A stretch of DNA of 42,284 bases from Candidatus Stahliibacteriota bacterium CG08_land_8_20_14_0_20_40_26 (GTDB lineage Bacteria > Hydrothermota > UBA3073): assembly GCA_002774315.1 (NCBI GenBank), contig PEYP01000026.1:1-42284 (forward strand), written 5' to 3'. The translations under genes and the position numbers were made by a program. This document shows, one piece after another, positions 1 to 40,581 of this stretch; position 1 is the first letter of the stretch, and every line of letters starts with the position of its first letter. Below the pieces are notes generated by a model. The model saw nothing but the letters and a program-made list of their open reading frames with translations. It ran no database searches and was not told the origin of the DNA.

Positions 1-892
1 CGGAAAGCATTCTCTCCAGAGCCACCCTCGCCCTTTCCATAATATCCTCTTGAATTGTTACTTCATATACCTCGTCTTCGATGGAGTGGAGAACATCTTC
101 TACCCTTGTCTTCTTCATATCCCTGCACATTCTTGGAGGACCAAGGGAATAAAACCTCTTTTCGGGATTTTCCCTTTTGAGTCTTGCTATTAACCCCTCT
201 TCGGTTCCAACGACTATAACCCTCTTATCGGTCTTTTTCGCAAAATATACCATTCCATTTGTAGAGAGCACCTCATCTGCCAGATCAATCACCTCTTTCC
301 TGCATTCTGGATGGACTATCACAGCTGCATCTGGATACTTCTCCTTCGCCCTGATTACATCCTCCTTCTTGAACCTTTCATGCACATAACAGAAACCATT
401 GTAGGGTATTACCTCTTTATCAGTAAATCTTGACACCCAGTTTGCAAGATTCCTGTCAGGAACAAATATTATTCTCTTTGCATCAATGCTATTTACAACC
501 TTTGCTGCGTTTGCAGATGTGCAGCATATATAACTTTCTGCCTTTATTTCAGCAGTTGTGTTTACATAGGAGACAACCTTTGCATCGGGGTACTTCCTCT
601 TCATATACGCCAGTTCGGAGGGCGTTATCATCTCTGCCATTGGACATCCGGCAGACTTCCTTGTGAGAAGGACTTTCTTTTTTGGAGAGAGTATCTTTGC
701 TGTCTCTGCCATAAACCTCACACCTGCAAACACGATAATTCTGGCGTCTGTCTTCTGTGCCCTTCTTGAAAGGTCTAATGAATCACCTAGAAAATCGGCA
801 ACCTCCTGCACTTCTGGAATTTGATAGTTGTGCACAAGTATAACTGCATCCTTCTCTCTTTTTAGCTTCTCTATCTTCTCTTTTATGTTCAT
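1..892 (-). CDS. nadA: quinolinate synthase NadA (3' end runs off the window)
   Basis: My own reverse-strand translation from the ATG at 892-890 gives MNIKEKIEKLKREKDAVILVHNYQIPEVQEVADFLGDSLDLSR... with later SAGCPMAEM and VHPEC motifs typical of NadA. It is absent from the ORF track because it is open at the window edge. Confidence 0.85.
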   Translation of the reverse strand, partial: MNIKEKIEKLKREKDAVILVHNYQIPEVQEVADFLGDSLDLSRRAQKTDARIIVFAGVRFMAETAKILSPKKKVLLTRKSAGCPMAEMITPSELAYMKRKYPDAKVVSYVNTTAEIKAESYICCTSANAAKVVNSIDAKRIIFVPDRNLANWVSRFTDKEVIPYNGFCYVHERFKKEDVIRAKEKYPDAAVIVHPECRKEVIDLADEVLSTNGMVYFAKKTDKRVIVVGTEEGLIARLKRENPEKRFYSLGPPRMCRDMKKTRVEDVLHSIEDEVYEVTIQEDIMERARVALERMLS

Positions 893-8351: not shown

Positions 8352-8411
8352 CTTTACCCCCAAGGACAATATTATACCTGATTATATATTAAGAAACTAC
8401 AAAGGTGGAAA

Positions 8412-8490
8412 GTTTGTTAGTTGGTTAGTTTGTTAGTTGGTTAGTTTGTTAGTTGGTTAGTTTGTTAATTGGTTAGTTTGTTAGTTGATT
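8412..8490 (+). repeat. tandem repeat, 16-bp unit GTTTGTTAGTTGGTTA, about 4.9 copies
   Basis: I counted the units directly at 8412, 8428, 8444, 8460 (one mismatch) and 8476 (partial). Confidence 0.9.
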
Positions 8491-8547
8491 ATATAATCTG
8501 ACTGTGTTTTGCGTGCTCTATGGTTTCTTTTTTTACTGTGTTGAAAT

Positions 8548-8576
8548 ATTATACTCCATTTTCTTAAAATTGTCAA
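8548..8576 (-). promoter_or_regulatory. sigma70-type promoter for thyX
   Basis: On the reverse strand: TTGACA, 17 nt, TATAAT. It is preceded by an A/T-rich tract. Confidence 0.6.
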
Positions 8577-8798
8577 GAAAAAAGTATCTGGCCACAGTGA
8601 CTACCCATGTGGGGACAGGGCTCGTCCCTGTGCGAGATGGCGCAATTTACCACAAAGGACACAAAGTTTAAAAAATAAATAGCTTCTCTTTGTGTGCTTT
8701 GTGGTTTAAATAAAAAGAAATTCGTGCAATTTGTTAACCTGCCCTATTAGATATGGAGTTATCTAACAGGGTAAATGATATTCGTGTTTTATACTTTC
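8571..8798 (+). repeat. dispersed structured element, copy A
   Basis: Positions 8571-8737 match 40360-40535 except for one substitution and a 9-bp indel. The element contains three hairpins, including an 18-bp stem (ACCACAAAGGACACAAAG / CTTTGTGTGCTTTGTGGT). The distal part carries a CCCTATTAGAT...ATCTAACAGGG hairpin module. Confidence 0.8.
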
Positions 8799-9035: not shown

Positions 9036-9080
9036 GCCTGTCTACCCTGCCTACCGGCAGGCAGGCGACAGGTAGATAGG
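9036..9080. repeat. compound REP-like palindrome
   Basis: GCCTGTCTACC-CTGCCTACCGGCAGGCAGG-CGACAGGTAGATAGG. The core CCTGCCTACCGGCAGGCAGG is at 9046-9065. Confidence 0.75.
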
Positions 9081-9114
9081 CACAGATTCAATCTGTGCTG
9101 GCACGATTTGAAAT

Positions 9115-9134
9115 CCTGACTGCCGTCAGGCAGG
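9115..9134. repeat. REP-like palindrome
   Basis: CCTGACTGCCGTCAGGCAGG. Confidence 0.75.
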
Positions 9135-9252
9135 CGTGCCTACATTTTTGAAAGCCATTTCCGAAAAAGCCGCGCTTATGAAATGAAAAATGAGTTATTT
9201 CTTAAATACAAAAAGCCATGTTGTTAAGCCTGTACAACTTTTGGTCAGTATT

Positions 9253-9273
9253 CCTTGCCTACCGGCAGGCAGG
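9253..9273. repeat. REP-like palindrome
   Basis: CCTTGCCTACCGGCAGGCAGG. Confidence 0.75.
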
Positions 9274-9396
9274 TGAACCCACTAAATTGAAGAAGAACCA
9301 CAAATCATAAACAAATTCCAATATTTAAGTTCAAAAAAATCAAGGCTTATAAATTTGGTCACTGGGATTCGGATATTGCTTATTATTTGGAGTTTG

Positions 9397-9412
9397 CCTG
9401 CCGGTAGGCAGG
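9397..9412. repeat. REP-like palindrome (opposite orientation)
   Basis: CCTGCCGGTAGGCAGG. Confidence 0.75.
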
Positions 9413-9466
9413 GTGCTTGGGATTTGTTTGATTTTTGGTGCTTGATATTTGGAATTTATATAATTA

Positions 9467-9556
9467 GGAGAGGTGTCCGAGTTGGCCGAAGGAGCACGAC
9501 TGGAAATCGTGTCCTCGCCGAAACGCGGGGCGCGGGTTCGAATCCCGCCCTCTCCG
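9467..9556 (+). tRNA. tRNA-Ser (anticodon GGA), long variable arm, no encoded CCA
   Basis: The acceptor stem GGAGAGG pairs with CCTCTCC. The anticodon stem-loop is CACGA-CTGGAAA-TCGTG. There is a long variable arm, and the T arm is CGGGTTCGAATCCCG. Confidence 0.9.
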
Positions 9557-9847
9557 GAATAAAATCGGGTGATCAGTTATCGGTGTAGAGCGGAAGGATA
9601 AAGGATAAAGGAAAAAGGATAAATGACTAATGACCAATGACTAATGACGATCACTGATTACCGATCACTGATTATCCGCAGGATCCGTATGGATAAACAA
9701 GGAGAAATGGCGAAATTTTGTAAGTCAACATGTAGGGCACGGTTTTAACCGTGCTGGCACAAATTGAATTTGTGCCTACAATTTGAAATAAATCCGTGTT
9801 AATCAGTGTAAATCTGCGTCCCCAGTGTCGCCAACATAATTCAGACT

Positions 9848-10405
9848 ATGTTCAAGGCGGTCATATTTGACCTTGATGGTACGATACTTGATTCAAGGTA
9901 TGATTGGAAAAAGATAAGAGAGAATTTAAACCTGAACCAATACTCTATCCTTGACCAGCTCTATTCCCTACTTGATGAAGAAAGAGAAAAAAAAGAATCG
10001 CTCTTAAAAAGATACGAAAGGAAAGCCACGTCCAATGCATCGCTCTTCCCGGATGTAAAGGAAGTTTTACATACACTGAAGAAGATGGGGATAAAGACAG
10101 GCCTTTCTACAAACAATTCAATAGACAATACAAGATTTATAATAGAGAAATATGGTCTCGTATTTGACGGTATTGTCACGAGGGATGACGGTATATGGAA
10201 GCCTAATAAGGAACCTATTCTCATGCTTATGCAGAGGCTTGGCTCTACGCCTGATACTACGGTCATCATTGGAGATAGCGATTATGACATTCTCTCGGCA
10301 AGGGATGCCGGTATATCCTGTGCAATCCTCTGGAGAGGGAAGTCCTTAAAACACAAGCCGGATTTTATAATATACAGCATTCGAGATGTATTGGATCTAC
10401 TGTAG
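9848..10405 (+). CDS. HAD-superfamily hydrolase (phosphoglycolate phosphatase-like)
   Basis: HAD motif I is present as VIFDLDGTILDS. Later motifs STNN and IGDSDYDI are also present. Confidence 0.8.
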   Translation: MFKAVIFDLDGTILDSRYDWKKIRENLNLNQYSILDQLYSLLDEEREKKESLLKRYERKATSNASLFPDVKEVLHTLKKMGIKTGLSTNNSIDNTRFIIEKYGLVFDGIVTRDDGIWKPNKEPILMLMQRLGSTPDTTVIIGDSDYDILSARDAGISCAILWRGKSLKHKPDFIIYSIRDVLDLL

Positions 10406-22969: not shown

Positions 22970-24679
22970 ATGGAATATCGCAGCGTCGATGAATTGGTTA
23001 GAAAGCTATCGCTTCTAAACAAGGTTGAGTCAACCAAAAAATTAACAGAGTTTTATGCAAAAGCAAGGTTTCAAATAAGACCAGAAGAATTCGATAGAAA
23101 GTACGTTGATGGAAGAGATGATGGTGGTATAGATTTCTATTATAATGAGGATACTAATTTCTTTATCTTTCAGACGAAGTTTACTGAGAGCCCGAAAAGA
23201 ACAAGTACATCTGAGATATTTAATGAAATCAGAAAACTAAAAAATACTCTGACTAATGAAAACCCGAATAGAAGAGCTAATGATTTCGTAAATTCATTAA
23301 GAAGAGAAACCGGAAATAAAGACGCTATTCTTGAAATATTATGGCTAACCACGAATATAGTAAAACCGTCCGTAAGGGAAGAGATACAAAAAGATTTAGA
23401 CGAATGGAGAAAAGAGAATGGTTGGTCGCTTGTTATTGACTTTGTCGCTATCGACAAATATGCTATAGAGAGTACAATTTATGATGTGAAACATGGCTAT
23501 ATTCCTTATACTGGCAAGAAAATATTAAAATTGCAAGAAGGAGAGTGGATAGAGAGCGAATGGGAAGAAACTCGTGTGTATTCTATTATTTGCTCAGTAG
23601 ATATTAATGATATTCTAGAATGGTTCCGTAATTCTGATGAAATAGATAGATTTCTACAGAAAAATGTTAGAGAATTTCTTGGTGAAGCTACCAAGATAAA
23701 TAAGGCAATCGCAAGATCCTATTCAGATGCCCCAACTTGGTTTTGGTATAAGCATAATGGCATCATCATTTTTGCAGATAATGTATATCTCGACAAAACA
23801 AGAAGTGAACTTGTTTTAAGAAATCCACAAGTAGTAAATGGTGGTCAAACATTAAAAGCCTTATTTTCTGCCTACGATAAAAATAATCGAAGAGGTAGTC
23901 CAGCAAAGATTATGCTTAGGATATACAGATTACCTTACGAGGATACTAAAACCTACAAAAGAAGTATCGAGATAATAGCTGCGCTAAATTCTCAGCATCA
24001 AATTAGAGCTTCAGATCTAAAATCGACCGATCCAAGACAAGTTAGATTAGAACAATTATTTGAGAATCTCGGTGCTGGTTATAAATACCTGCGAAAGAGA
24101 TCTAAAGAAGCAAAAAGCACCAGATATTCCATTACAATGAGGAATCTCGCTCTAAGATATTATGTTTGTGAGAAAACCGTACCCCATGAAGGTGTAAGAG
24201 GAAATGTTGAAGAGCTATTCGAGGAAGATAGCAAGTATGATTACGTCTTTAATGAAAAAGCGATTAATAGAGATATGGCTAATAATCACATAATAATCAA
24301 TTATGTTACTACGTGGGCCATCGATCAAATACTGAAAAAAGTAGATATGCCAAAAAGAGATGAAGAATTTTTCCCATACACAAAGTGGTTTGTTCTTGTA
24401 GATATGTATAATAAACTAATGGAATGGAAGCAGAAGAAATTTGAACTAGGTTGGCAAAGTTGGATTAACTTTATAGAAAAACCTCAATTTGAGAAGGGGA
24501 TCTCAGATTACGCCCACAAAGCTTTTAGAATAGGTAGAGAAATTATACCTGCATACGAAGAAGCGAAAGGTTTCTTTAGATCGAAAGATGCGGTGAGGAA
24601 ATTTTCTTCTAAGACAGGTAAACGAAATTTTGAATCTTCAATTAATAAAGCATATACTATATCTAAGGATGATCTATAA
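22970..24679 (+). CDS. AIPR-family abortive-infection protein with an N-terminal PD-(D/E)xK-like module
   Basis: The N-terminus reads DGRDDGGIDFYY...FFIFQTKF, an Mrr-like D...QxK pattern. The central part reads KHNGIIIF...VVNGGQTL, which matches the NNGITI/IVNGxQT hallmark of AIPR proteins. The RBS is AAGGAGGG. Confidence 0.75.
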   Translation: MEYRSVDELVRKLSLLNKVESTKKLTEFYAKARFQIRPEEFDRKYVDGRDDGGIDFYYNEDTNFFIFQTKFTESPKRTSTSEIFNEIRKLKNTLTNENPNRRANDFVNSLRRETGNKDAILEILWLTTNIVKPSVREEIQKDLDEWRKENGWSLVIDFVAIDKYAIESTIYDVKHGYIPYTGKKILKLQEGEWIESEWEETRVYSIICSVDINDILEWFRNSDEIDRFLQKNVREFLGEATKINKAIARSYSDAPTWFWYKHNGIIIFADNVYLDKTRSELVLRNPQVVNGGQTLKALFSAYDKNNRRGSPAKIMLRIYRLPYEDTKTYKRSIEIIAALNSQHQIRASDLKSTDPRQVRLEQLFENLGAGYKYLRKRSKEAKSTRYSITMRNLALRYYVCEKTVPHEGVRGNVEELFEEDSKYDYVFNEKAINRDMANNHIIINYVTTWAIDQILKKVDMPKRDEEFFPYTKWFVLVDMYNKLMEWKQKKFELGWQSWINFIEKPQFEKGISDYAHKAFRIGREIIPAYEEAKGFFRSKDAVRKFSSKTGKRNFESSINKAYTISKDDL

Positions 24680-24717
24680 GAGATAAACATTAGGCGACAT
24701 TTTAGGGAGGTGAACAC

Positions 24718-25158
24718 ATGAGAATATATCAAACCATTAGATTCCAAGGAGCAAGAAACACAACTCAGGAAAACGCCTTGATAGATACTGGAGCAGATAT
24801 ATCCATAATACCATTAAAGTTAGCTGTGATGATTGGTGCATGGCGCACGGATCAAACGATAAATATCAGTGGTGTCCATGGGCAAAGCAGAACATTACCA
24901 CTTGGGGTTGCACACATTTACTTTCCATCCTTAAGTGAAATGGGTGGGCGATTCGTTATTGCTATAAGTGACATAGAACAAAAGCCTATAATTGGTATGG
25001 ATATACTAAGACCTCTTGGAATTAACATTGATACTAGAACCCATCAGCTATCAGTAAGAAATGAACTTTGGGAAGCTTTCAAAACTTTGTCTGGCGTGGG
25101 TGTTTTAACCTTTGTGGGGATAAAGATATTGGAGTCAGTTTTCGAGGAGAAACGATGA
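24718..25158 (+). CDS. retropepsin-like (clan AA) aspartic protease, single domain
   Basis: It has the catalytic ALIDTGADISIIP (D-T-G-A) motif and the IIGMDILRPLG motif. It has a hydrophobic C-terminal helix (GVGVLTFVGIKIL). The RBS is AGGGAGG. It starts 38 nt after the AIPR stop. Confidence 0.75.
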   Translation: MRIYQTIRFQGARNTTQENALIDTGADISIIPLKLAVMIGAWRTDQTINISGVHGQSRTLPLGVAHIYFPSLSEMGGRFVIAISDIEQKPIIGMDILRPLGINIDTRTHQLSVRNELWEAFKTLSGVGVLTFVGIKILESVFEEKR

Positions 25159-25424: not shown

Positions 25425-25544
25425 CTCGAGACACGCAAGAAATTATCTTGACGCCTTTTAATTATTATCACGGACTTTGCAGCTCACTACGTTCGCCCAA
25501 ATGCTTCGCACTTCGCAAAGCCCGATGACATTATCTGAAATTTT
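25425..25544 (+). repeat. degenerate 3' box followed by a family-1 attC-like element
   Basis: CTCGAGACACGCAAGAAATT is at 25425-25444. It is followed by TCTTGAC...CTTTGC(25475)/GCAAAG(25515) stem...CGATGACATTATCTGAAATT. Confidence 0.4.
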
Positions 25545-25548
25545 GCCG

Positions 25549-26280
25549 ATGAAATATAATATGGATAATCAGGAAAAATATAAAAGGTATGTCGCACATT
25601 TTGATATGTTGGGTTTTAAGAATGCAACCTTGAGAAACCCTGATGAAGCTTGGAAAGCATTAAGCAGTTTACGAGCTTGTATGGATAGAGTGTTAGAATT
25701 ACATATTAAAGTTCTATCTACAAATGAGATTATATCAAATAGAATAAAGGCTTATATCTTTTCTGATAGTATCTTAATCTTCACTTTAAGAGACGAACCC
25801 AAAGACCTCATCTCGATGTTAGTTCTAACTTCTCAGATTTTTGCAGATTCATTACATGCTTGTATTCCACTTAGAGGAGGCATTTCCTATGGTGATTTTT
25901 TCTTTAATCTAGACTTACATCTTTTTTGTGGTACTCCTTTTGTTAAAGCCTATGAGATTGGAGAAATGGTCCAATGGTCTGGAATTGTTGTAGATAAGGC
26001 TGTTGCTGAACACTATCAAAAAAATCCATTTCCCAAGTCTCGTGGTAGTCCAATCATCATACAATGGGATGTTCCAGTTAAGCCTTATGGCAAAAAGAAG
26101 TTTTGGGTCGTTAATTGGTCCGTTATTTTTAGGCGTAATTTTAAGAAAGAGCTACCAATTTCTGTTCAAGATTATTACGAAGCTTTTAAAAGCCTTTTTG
26201 GCCCTTATGAAAATTTGCCTGCCGATGTCAAAGCTAAATATGAGAATACCGTTAATTTTATAAATTCCAATTTAGGTTGA
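25549..26280 (+). CDS. hypothetical protein with a class III nucleotidyl-cyclase-like (palm) motif pattern
   Basis: The motifs occur in the order and spacing of class III cyclase domains: VAHFDMLGF (F-x-D-x-x-GF), then about 45 aa, then KAYIFSDSILIF, then about 25 aa, then PLRGGISYGDFFF, then GTPFVKAYEIGEMVQWSGIVV. The start is uncertain (ATG 25549 or 25561, no clear RBS). The ORF-track TTG at 25477 lies inside a repeat. Confidence 0.45.
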   Translation: MKYNMDNQEKYKRYVAHFDMLGFKNATLRNPDEAWKALSSLRACMDRVLELHIKVLSTNEIISNRIKAYIFSDSILIFTLRDEPKDLISMLVLTSQIFADSLHACIPLRGGISYGDFFFNLDLHLFCGTPFVKAYEIGEMVQWSGIVVDKAVAEHYQKNPFPKSRGSPIIIQWDVPVKPYGKKKFWVVNWSVIFRRNFKKELPISVQDYYEAFKSLFGPYENLPADVKAKYENTVNFINSNLG

Positions 26281-26311: not shown

Positions 26312-26390
26312 GTTTGACACACTGTTTGTGGCTCACTTTGTTCGCCCAAACCCTTTGGGTTTCACAAACAGCGATACCGTTATATGAAAT
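26312..26390 (+). repeat. family-1 attC-like element
   Basis: GTTTGAC starts the element. The outer stem is CTGTTTGTG (26322) / CACAAACAG (26363). The inner stem is CCCAAA/TTTGGG. The 3' box is CGATACCGTTATATGAAAT. Confidence 0.45.
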
Positions 26391-28385: not shown

Positions 28386-28517
28386 TCTTGACGCCTTTCC
28401 TGTCTGTCGGCAGATAGGTAATTATTATCAGCGTGGTTGCGGTTCGCCCCTTCGGGGCTCACCAAAATGCTCGCTATTGCTCGCACTTCGCAAACACGCG
28501 AGACGTTAGGAGAAATT
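28386..28517 (+). repeat. family-1 attC-like element with a nested palindrome insertion
   Basis: It starts with TCTTGACGCCTTT, followed by an insertion at 28399-28418 and then TAATTATTATCA. The stem is GCGTGGTTGCG / CGCAAACACGC with one mismatch. The inner hairpin is GCCCCTTCGGGGC. The 3' box is CGAGACGTTAGGAGAAATT. Confidence 0.45.
28399..28418. repeat. REP-like palindrome (CCTGTC...GATAGG variant)
   Basis: CCTGTCTGTCGGCAGATAGG interrupts a sequence that is contiguous in the homologous copy at 25446-25470. Confidence 0.7.
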
Positions 28518-40359: not shown

Positions 40360-40581
40360 TGTCAAGGAAAAAGTATCTGGCCACAGTGACTACCCATGTG
40401 GGGACAGGGCTCGTCCCTGTGCGAGATGGCGCAATTTACCACAAAGTTCACAAAGGACACAAAGTTTAAAAAATAAATAGCTTCTCTTTGTGTGCTTTGT
40501 GGTTTAAATAAAAAGAAATTCGTGCAATTTGTTAATTCCTGCCTACCGCAGGCAGGCGTGATATTCGTGTTTTATACTTTC
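40360..40581 (+). repeat. dispersed structured element, copy B
   Basis: See copy A. Here the distal hairpin module is replaced by CCTGCCTACCGCAGGCAGG (40538-40556). A third, partial copy of the distal part lies at about 40021-40100. Confidence 0.8.
40538..40556. repeat. REP-like palindrome
   Basis: CCTGCCTACCGCAGGCAGG. Confidence 0.75.

Follow-up and report, generated by a model that had tools for sequence, protein, structure and literature searches.

A lone class III cyclase-fold protein related to the prophage toxin PanT, in a region that resembles a cassette array

Several groups of proteins share the palm-like fold of the nucleotide cyclases. The best known is the class III cyclase domain (PF00211), represented by the structures 3et6, Rv1900c (1ybt), Rv1625c (7yzi) and CyaC (1wc1). 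The Pycsar cyclases, PycC (7r65, 8jsz, 8jsf), are stand-alone-sized cyclase-fold proteins of defence islands, and the palm domains of mCpol/Panoptes, Cas10 and GGDEF proteins have a related fold with two acidic metal ligands. A less familiar case is PanT (gp8, YP_293707.1) of the Burkholderia prophage phi52237 (from NC_007145), described as the “putative nucleotide cyclase” toxin of the PanA/PanT type II toxin-antitoxin pair (Kurata et al. 2022, PMC8832971). No CDD domain is found in gp8, and HHpred matches it to adenylate/guanylate cyclases at 97% (PMC8832971). In E. coli it acts as a toxin, and it is neutralised by the DUF4065/Panacea antitoxin PanA, with which it associates in a complex (PMC8832971). 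Transcription is inhibited most and translation next; ATP is unchanged, GTP is slightly lower, and ppGpp accumulates in a RelA-dependent manner that is not the cause of toxicity (PMC8832971). Our literature searches found no description of a stand-alone cyclase-fold defence gene.

Here we describe a gene, P0001, whose product has this fold. It lies in a window of 42,284 nucleotides, the whole stretch of DNA that was analysed (contig PEYP01000026.1 of a Candidatus Stahliibacteriota genome). An earlier, sequence-only reading of the window had delimited the open reading frame correctly (Table 1; 243 amino acids), and was also right that it has no clear ribosome-binding site and that no sensor or effector domain is fused to it. 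The public gene call starts eight codons earlier, at ATG 25525 (251 amino acids), and the N-termini of homologues, together with an ESM Atlas record, suggest that the true start may be ATG 25561 (the M5 position). None of the three candidate starts (25525, 25549, 25561) is preceded by a Shine-Dalgarno sequence, whereas the gene downstream does have one (AAAGGAGG). A sigma-70 promoter before P0001 was considered and rejected, as promoter-like sites in the region are no commoner than in shuffled sequence.

The AlphaFold2 model of P0001, built from an alignment of 85 sequences, is a confident one (mean pLDDT 95, pTM 0.91). Its main domain has the topology beta1-alpha1-alpha2-beta2-beta3-alpha3-beta4-beta5-alpha4-beta6-alpha5-beta7-beta8. 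In a Foldseek search of the PDB, all of the matches listed (to rank 49) are class III adenylyl/guanylyl cyclases, the best being 5o5l (E 1.2e-6). VIA-align, a Foldseek-independent search of 48,161 chains, also puts these cyclases on top: its best 25 matches are all class III cyclases (Z 10.7-15.3), led by 3et6_B (Z 15.3, 169 residues aligned, rmsd 3.8), and Rv1900c has Z 14.5. The palm fold and the conserved metal aspartates described below support the earlier suggestion of a class III cyclase-like protein.

The structural alignments span model residues from about 5 to about 190-196, so the Lys/Trp-rich stretch (IIIQWDVPVKPYGKKKFWVVNW) is the beta7-beta8 hairpin of the cyclase fold. This revises the earlier impression that the last 100 or so residues resemble nothing recognisable: it holds for the last 50 or so, which form two helices (206-217 and 225-242) with no known counterpart in the structural matches, and it fails for the Lys/Trp-rich part. 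The C-terminal extension is well conserved (Table 1), which would fit a catalytic or structural role better than that of a fast-evolving sensor.

All four of the class III cyclase-like motifs that had been picked out by eye are present, each on the expected element of the model: FDMLGF at the end of beta1, SD in the beta2-beta3 turn, PLRGGISYG on beta4, and GTPFVKAYEIGE at beta5/alpha4. We aligned the family profile with that of 17 genuine PF00211 domains, taken from genomes that also bear a family member. The score (E 0.042) is weak on its own and in line with Pfam finding no match; the register agrees with the order of secondary-structure elements. In this alignment the FxD and GD aspartates pair with D19 and D73, respectively, the RxGIxxG arginine pairs with R109, and the G..VN.A.R segment takes in G128 and A134. 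The alignment bears out the reading of VAHFDMLGF as the site of the first metal Asp, of SDS as the replacement for the GD metal-Asp strand, and of the R-x-G-I-x-x-G strand. The fourth correspondence, to G-x-x-V-N-x-A-x-R, survives in part: G128 and A134 match, but V132 and E136 occupy the places of the canonical transition-state Asn and Arg of the VNxAxR helix, where the family consensus shows neither N nor R, as far as so weak an alignment (E 0.042) places them. Other residues could offset the missing pair.

Conservation follows the same motifs. The two putative metal aspartates, whose loss among homologues would have spoken against a cyclase-like site, are present in 96-98% of the 85 divergent relatives, in which G128 is found in 85/85, W190 in 83/85, N233 in 77/85 and T234 in 76/85. 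In a 39-sequence alignment D19, L21, G22, S72, D73, R109, G110, G115, G128, G145, N189 and W190 are invariant. Judged from these alignments, the motif residues are conserved well beyond chance. In mammalian cyclase structures, the beta4 Arg and the beta7 VKG lysine help to hold the triphosphate. The cyclase-domain consensus reads ...VKG....V, and K178 (VPxK) is the likely counterpart of that lysine; the structural alignments reach about residue 190, and global hhalign could not map K178 onto the VKG lysine. The family is predicted to retain the residues that hold the metal-triphosphate, and to be without recognisable base-specifying and transition-state residues.

The family to which P0001 belongs is very large, with 111 clusters at 90% identity and 1,945 representatives at 50% identity (E<=0.001). 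Its members are unnamed except for one distant JGI label, “class 3 adenylate cyclase”. By taking one genome per species we confirmed 210 loci, kept 80 and compared neighbours in 77. The family is spread patchily over more than 10 phyla; the 80 loci come from Omnitrophota, Planctomycetota, Desulfobacterota, Nitrospirota, Chloroflexota, Verrucomicrobiota, Bacteroidota, Acidobacteriota and Bacillota; the Proteobacteria among them are Azotobacter, Legionella and Lysobacterales. A phage collection gave one weak match and a plasmid collection two. The genome that carries P0001 has a single family copy and no canonical PF00211 cyclase.

Does any gene travel with the family? Open reading frame calling and all-against-all BLAST over the 77 loci reveal no protein cluster that recurs near the gene, besides the family itself. 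No Pfam family is common to more than two of the 140 immediate neighbours, and the 30 most tightly spaced small neighbours are equally heterogeneous. The TPR/Zn-ribbon protein, aspartic protease, ADH and methyltransferase encoded in the window have no homologue in any of the 80 loci, and an AbiU homologue occurs in one, 5.5 kb from the family gene. The downstream TPR/Zn-ribbon protein, which had been put forward as a possible partner of P0001, is never found beside a homologue; we rejected it, AbiU and the aspartic protease as partners on this lack of recurrence.

Defence genes do occur near homologues occasionally: AlbA_2/Schlafen-like genes on both sides in locus L001, and OLD/AAA_15, PIN, T5orf172 and HEC-01 elsewhere. 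In three loci of distant family members a type IIG Eco57I/MmeI-like restriction-modification enzyme lies immediately upstream (L065:4969-7971, L075:3005-6808, L036:3117-7424), with gaps of -7, -4 and 87 nt to the family gene, respectively; a recurring link with restriction genes is possible. Ordinary genes make up most of the neighbours, and the defence association of the family is anecdotal.

A few members depart from the simple form. In the C-terminal half of a 438 amino acid DUF262-annotated protein on the Bacillus wiedmannii plasmid p536 (L102:4242-5558), tblastn detects the cyclase-like core (E 1e-9); the protein is a fusion to a ParB/GmrSD-type domain. A search for longer fused members gave one fusion to TrmE, set aside as a probable annotation artefact, and its other long forms have unrelated tails without Pfam domains. 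A Phycisphaerae subgroup (P0024 and P0030, L003:5354-6361) has an N-terminal extension of about 92 residues with predicted membrane helices before the cyclase-like domain, and Christensenella hongkongensis carries two tandem paralogues (L074:7980-8867 and 9167-9889). In three loci (L007, L029, L031) tblastn matches are near full length and the open frames end after 172, 178 and 88 codons. The three copies seem to be disrupted, as expected of an accessory gene that is dispensable or costly.

How does P0001 compare with the described systems? Pfam, NCBIfam and PADLOC return nothing for it, PDB sequence and profile searches return nothing meaningful, and in PHROGs it matches just one family of unknown function (phrog_23933, E 2.4e-8). 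Profiles that the sequence-only reading had named as relevant, PF00211, mCpol and PycC, do not match P0001. For PF00211 this is so at E<=1, with 5 of the 85 relatives matching weakly (best E 0.029), and a PF00211 search of the whole genome finds no match, P0001 included. By its sequence the family is not a canonical cyclase. It has a fold in common with class III cyclases over about 150-175 residues (Z 13.6-15.3), with the two metal Asp and the beta4 Arg at equivalent positions. It differs from them in the missing PF00211 match, the replaced transition-state Asn/Arg, base-specifying residues that are not identifiable, an extra C-terminal helix pair and the lack of a regulatory domain. The Pycsar cyclases score Z 12.6-13.3 in the VIA search; unlike them, P0001 has no PADLOC PycC match and no TM/TIR effector adjoining it, either here or in the 77 loci. 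The mCpol, Cas10 and GGDEF palm domains rank clearly lower structurally (GGDEF Z <=10.4, Cmr2 Z 9.0), and for these there is neither a Pfam/PADLOC match nor a partner effector.

The closest characterised relative is PanT. Against gp8, the 85-sequence family profile scores a probability of 97.8% in hhalign (E 7e-13, 141 columns), about ten orders of magnitude better than against genuine cyclase domains, and the motifs FDxLGF, FSD, RGGIxxG and GPxxVxAY are common to gp8 and the family. Conversely, phmmer with gp8 matches 24 family members in the 80 loci (E 1.6e-8 to 8e-4). A BFVD fold search with the P0001 model did not return gp8; viral cyclase domains were returned. The two proteins are homologous over the cyclase-fold core, neither matches a domain library, and both are on mobile DNA. 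However, gp8 is 314 amino acids long, with a 48-residue N-terminal lead, a divergent C-terminus and about 23-26% identity to P0001. It is paired with PanA (DUF4065/Panacea), whereas P0001 has no PanA alongside, in its own genome or in the 80 loci: phmmer with PanA (gp9) finds no match among the open reading frames of the homologous loci, and a search for PF13274 in the genome (81% complete) was likewise negative. On these comparisons we place P0001 in a PanT-related superfamily of cyclase-fold proteins. Its subfamily is without PanA and has a conserved beta7-beta8 hairpin and a conserved pair of C-terminal helices of its own. Neither the fold assignment nor the toxin relative is new; what has no description in the libraries and literature searched is the form that has no antitoxin, appears to be carried on a cassette and bears a C-terminal module of its own.

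The surroundings of P0001 in the window are of two kinds. The left part holds housekeeping genes (accA, lptC/A, secDF, icd, map, mutS). From 21874 to about 36700 every gene is on the + strand and the genes are functionally unrelated: LolA-like, AbiU/AIPR, clan AA aspartic protease, P0001, TPR/Zn-ribbon, Zn-ADH, methyltransferase, GNAT, HhH-GPD glycosylase and others. At 22970-25158 the AbiU/AIPR protein (PADLOC AbiU, E 4e-29) is followed after 38 nt by the aspartic protease, itself a weak match to the PADLOC candidate PDC-M08B (E 2e-7). P0001 is separated from the TPR gene, on the same strand, by 138 nt, and the AbiU-like gene is 870 nt upstream.

Two copies of a hairpin repeat of about 66 nt bracket P0001 (Table 1), and a third lies ahead of the methyltransferase gene. 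The stems (CTTTGC/GCAAAG versus GTTTGTG/CACAAAC) show compensatory changes, and the ends are of the GTTAGGA/GTTATAT type. The conserved box of the upstream element (TTGACGCCTTT..TAATTATTATCA, also given as CAAGAAATTATCTTGACGCCTTT..TAATTATTATCA) has five copies in the genome; after each of them come a variable hairpin and an end similar to CGTTAGGCGAAAT. Two are in the window (25448-25541 and 28388-28516) and three on other contigs of the genome (C74, C110, C162), each just upstream of an unrelated gene; in two of the five, a 20-nt REP-like palindrome is inserted within the box. The box-hairpin element may be an attC-type site or another cassette-junction element. P0001 has a lower G+C content (33-36%) than the TPR and ADH genes (42-45%). 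With repeat copies on both sides and a G+C content that differs from that of the next genes, the earlier view of P0001 as a cassette of its own gains support, and from its sequence the region looks like a cassette array. No integron integrase scores above the cut-off in the assembly (1.31 Mb, 81% complete); the sole TIGR02249 match is below the cut-off and XerC/D-like. In an Omnitrophota genome (L005), a 53%-identical homologue lies between clearer attC-like sites (1130-1300 and 2001-2150), GTCTAAC...GTTATGC on the upstream side and, on the downstream side, GCATAAC...GTTAGCC with its long imperfect hairpin. Elsewhere, then, the family probably takes the form of an integron-type cassette.

Table 1. 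Positions of P0001, its predicted parts and the flanking repeats in the window
Feature	Position	Strand	Evidence or remark
Cyclase-fold protein CDS (P0001, 243 aa)	25549..26280	+	alternative starts ATG 25525, ATG 25561
Cyclase homology domain, residues ~10-190	25576..26118	+	AlphaFold2 model; VIA Z up to 15.3 over model 5..191; Foldseek
D19 codon (FDMLGF), putative first metal-binding Asp	25603..25605	+	aligns to FxD Asp; in 82/85 relatives
D73 codon (FSD), putative second metal-binding Asp, beta2-beta3 turn	25765..25767	+	aligns to GD Asp; in 83/85 relatives
R109 codon (PLRGG)	25873..25875	+	aligns to Arg of RxGIxxG; R/K in 82/85; putative phosphate-binding role
K178 codon (VPxK, beta7)	26080..26082	+	K/R in 71/85; likely counterpart of cyclase VKG lysine
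C-terminal two-helix extension, residues ~205-243, conserved K230, N233, T234, F237	26161..26277	+	AlphaFold2 model, structural alignments, conservation
Upstream structured intergenic repeat, conserved 23-nt box + variable hairpin	25448..25541	+	ends 7 nt before ATG 25549
Downstream copy of hairpin repeat, between P0001 and TPR/Zn-ribbon gene	26325..26390	+	stem with compensatory changes versus upstream copy

What might such a protein do? The members of the family are lone mobile genes and the tested relative is a phage-borne toxin, so a self-contained, growth-arresting enzyme seems likelier than a maker of an alarm signal. A gene that passes from phylum to phylum by itself has to function by itself, and this favors a self-contained activity over a dedicated pair of signal and receptor. 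We tentatively favor, with a confidence that stops a little short of even, the reading that P0001 is an antitoxin-less, cassette-borne, NTP-using enzyme of toxin type on the class III cyclase fold, drawn from a very large mobile family and possibly abortive-infection-like. Taken together, the toxic relative and the conserved metal-NTP site point most readily to an NTP-using enzyme that arrests growth and is normally silent or self-inhibited. Such an enzyme would bind an NTP with two metal ions and yield a product other than a standard alarm signal. Once active it would stop growth as PanT does, at transcription and then translation, with ATP not lost. Because the gene travels alone, either the protein would have to be restrained in cis, perhaps through its oligomeric state or the two conserved C-terminal helices, or its expression would have to be low; a trigger such as phage infection might then release the protein, making it a single-gene module of abortive-infection type. 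Against the toxin reading, toxicity is known for one distant relative (about 23-26% identity, different C-terminus), and that relative needs an antitoxin. With no antitoxin, promoter or ribosome-binding site evident at P0001, the gene could be silent or harmless. The anecdotal nature of the defence association and the good conservation of the C-terminal extension also weigh on this side. It is tempting to go further and hypothesize that P0001-type proteins are widespread single-gene, antitoxin-free abortive-infection enzymes, spread as integron-like cassettes, whose core is held off by the C-terminal helices until a phage trigger sets free a novel nucleotide product, or a nucleotide transfer onto a macromolecule, that shuts down transcription. 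We regard this fuller version as fairly unlikely.

The sequence-only reading had cast P0001 as a signalling nucleotide synthase. A genuine second-messenger synthase, e.g., a cNMP cyclase with a receptor or effector that lies at another locus or is one of the universal host proteins, would explain why the fold is that of class III cyclases, why Pycsar cyclases turn up in the structural search and why metal and phosphate residues are conserved; an automatic Atlas label and the one JGI name also call relatives cyclases. However, no effector gene recurs in the 77 loci, no PycC, CBASS or mCpol profile matches, the genome is without a PF00211 cyclase, a signal maker moving alone across phyla would find no matching receptor, and the nearest tested relative is a toxin, so that we consider a messenger synthase unlikely. 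A catalytically dead NTP binder (a sensor, regulator or sponge) would have a precedent in the class III cyclase-like ATP-binding protein of P. aeruginosa, whose structure (6yii) is among the matches (Z 11.9), and would account for V132 and E136 at the transition-state positions and for the unmatched PF00211. The metal Asp are nevertheless near-invariant (96-98%) over a very divergent family, which points to catalysis, and the homologue PanT is strongly toxic; we find a dead binder quite improbable. That P0001 is one half of a two-gene system with a neighbor in the window, be it the TPR/Zn-ribbon protein, acting as effector or antitoxin, or the AbiU and aspartic protease pair upstream, is suggested by the common strand and close spacing. 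Yet those neighbors do not recur in the 80 loci, apart from the one distant AbiU homologue, and on the downstream side a structured repeat lies between the genes and the G+C content steps from 33-36% to 45%. Such a pairing is very improbable.

The fuller hypothesis of widespread single-gene abortive-infection enzymes, if true, would give the class III cyclase fold a catalytic role not seen before. The family comprises about 2,000 clusters (at 50% identity), its enzyme fold can be recognised, its active-site core is conserved and one of its members has been proven toxic, and yet it has neither a name nor a Pfam, NCBIfam or PADLOC profile. The chemistry of the family, once known, would explain how PanT poisons transcription, and would show what the cyclase fold is capable of after loss of the canonical transition-state residues. 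The family could also add a single-gene system to the anti-phage repertoire. For annotation, our results count against the label “adenylate/guanylate cyclase”, and against Pycsar- or CBASS-like signalling deduced from fold alone.

The window is also rich in other repeats. REP-like palindromes (CCTGCCTACCGGCAGGCAGG and variants) occur in intergenic gaps at 9047-9412, 25219, 27183, 31963, 35676 and 40249, several of them beside a tRNA gene (9467-9556). An 8-nt tandem repeat (GTTAGTTG/GTTAGTTT) of about 14 units lies within an intergenic gap at 8387-8499. Two adjoining direct repeats (96 nt with 97% identity; 87 nt with 100%) are present at 8571-8737 and again at 40360-40535; these sites, with 31.8 kb between them, enclose most of the window and with it the block of accessory genes.
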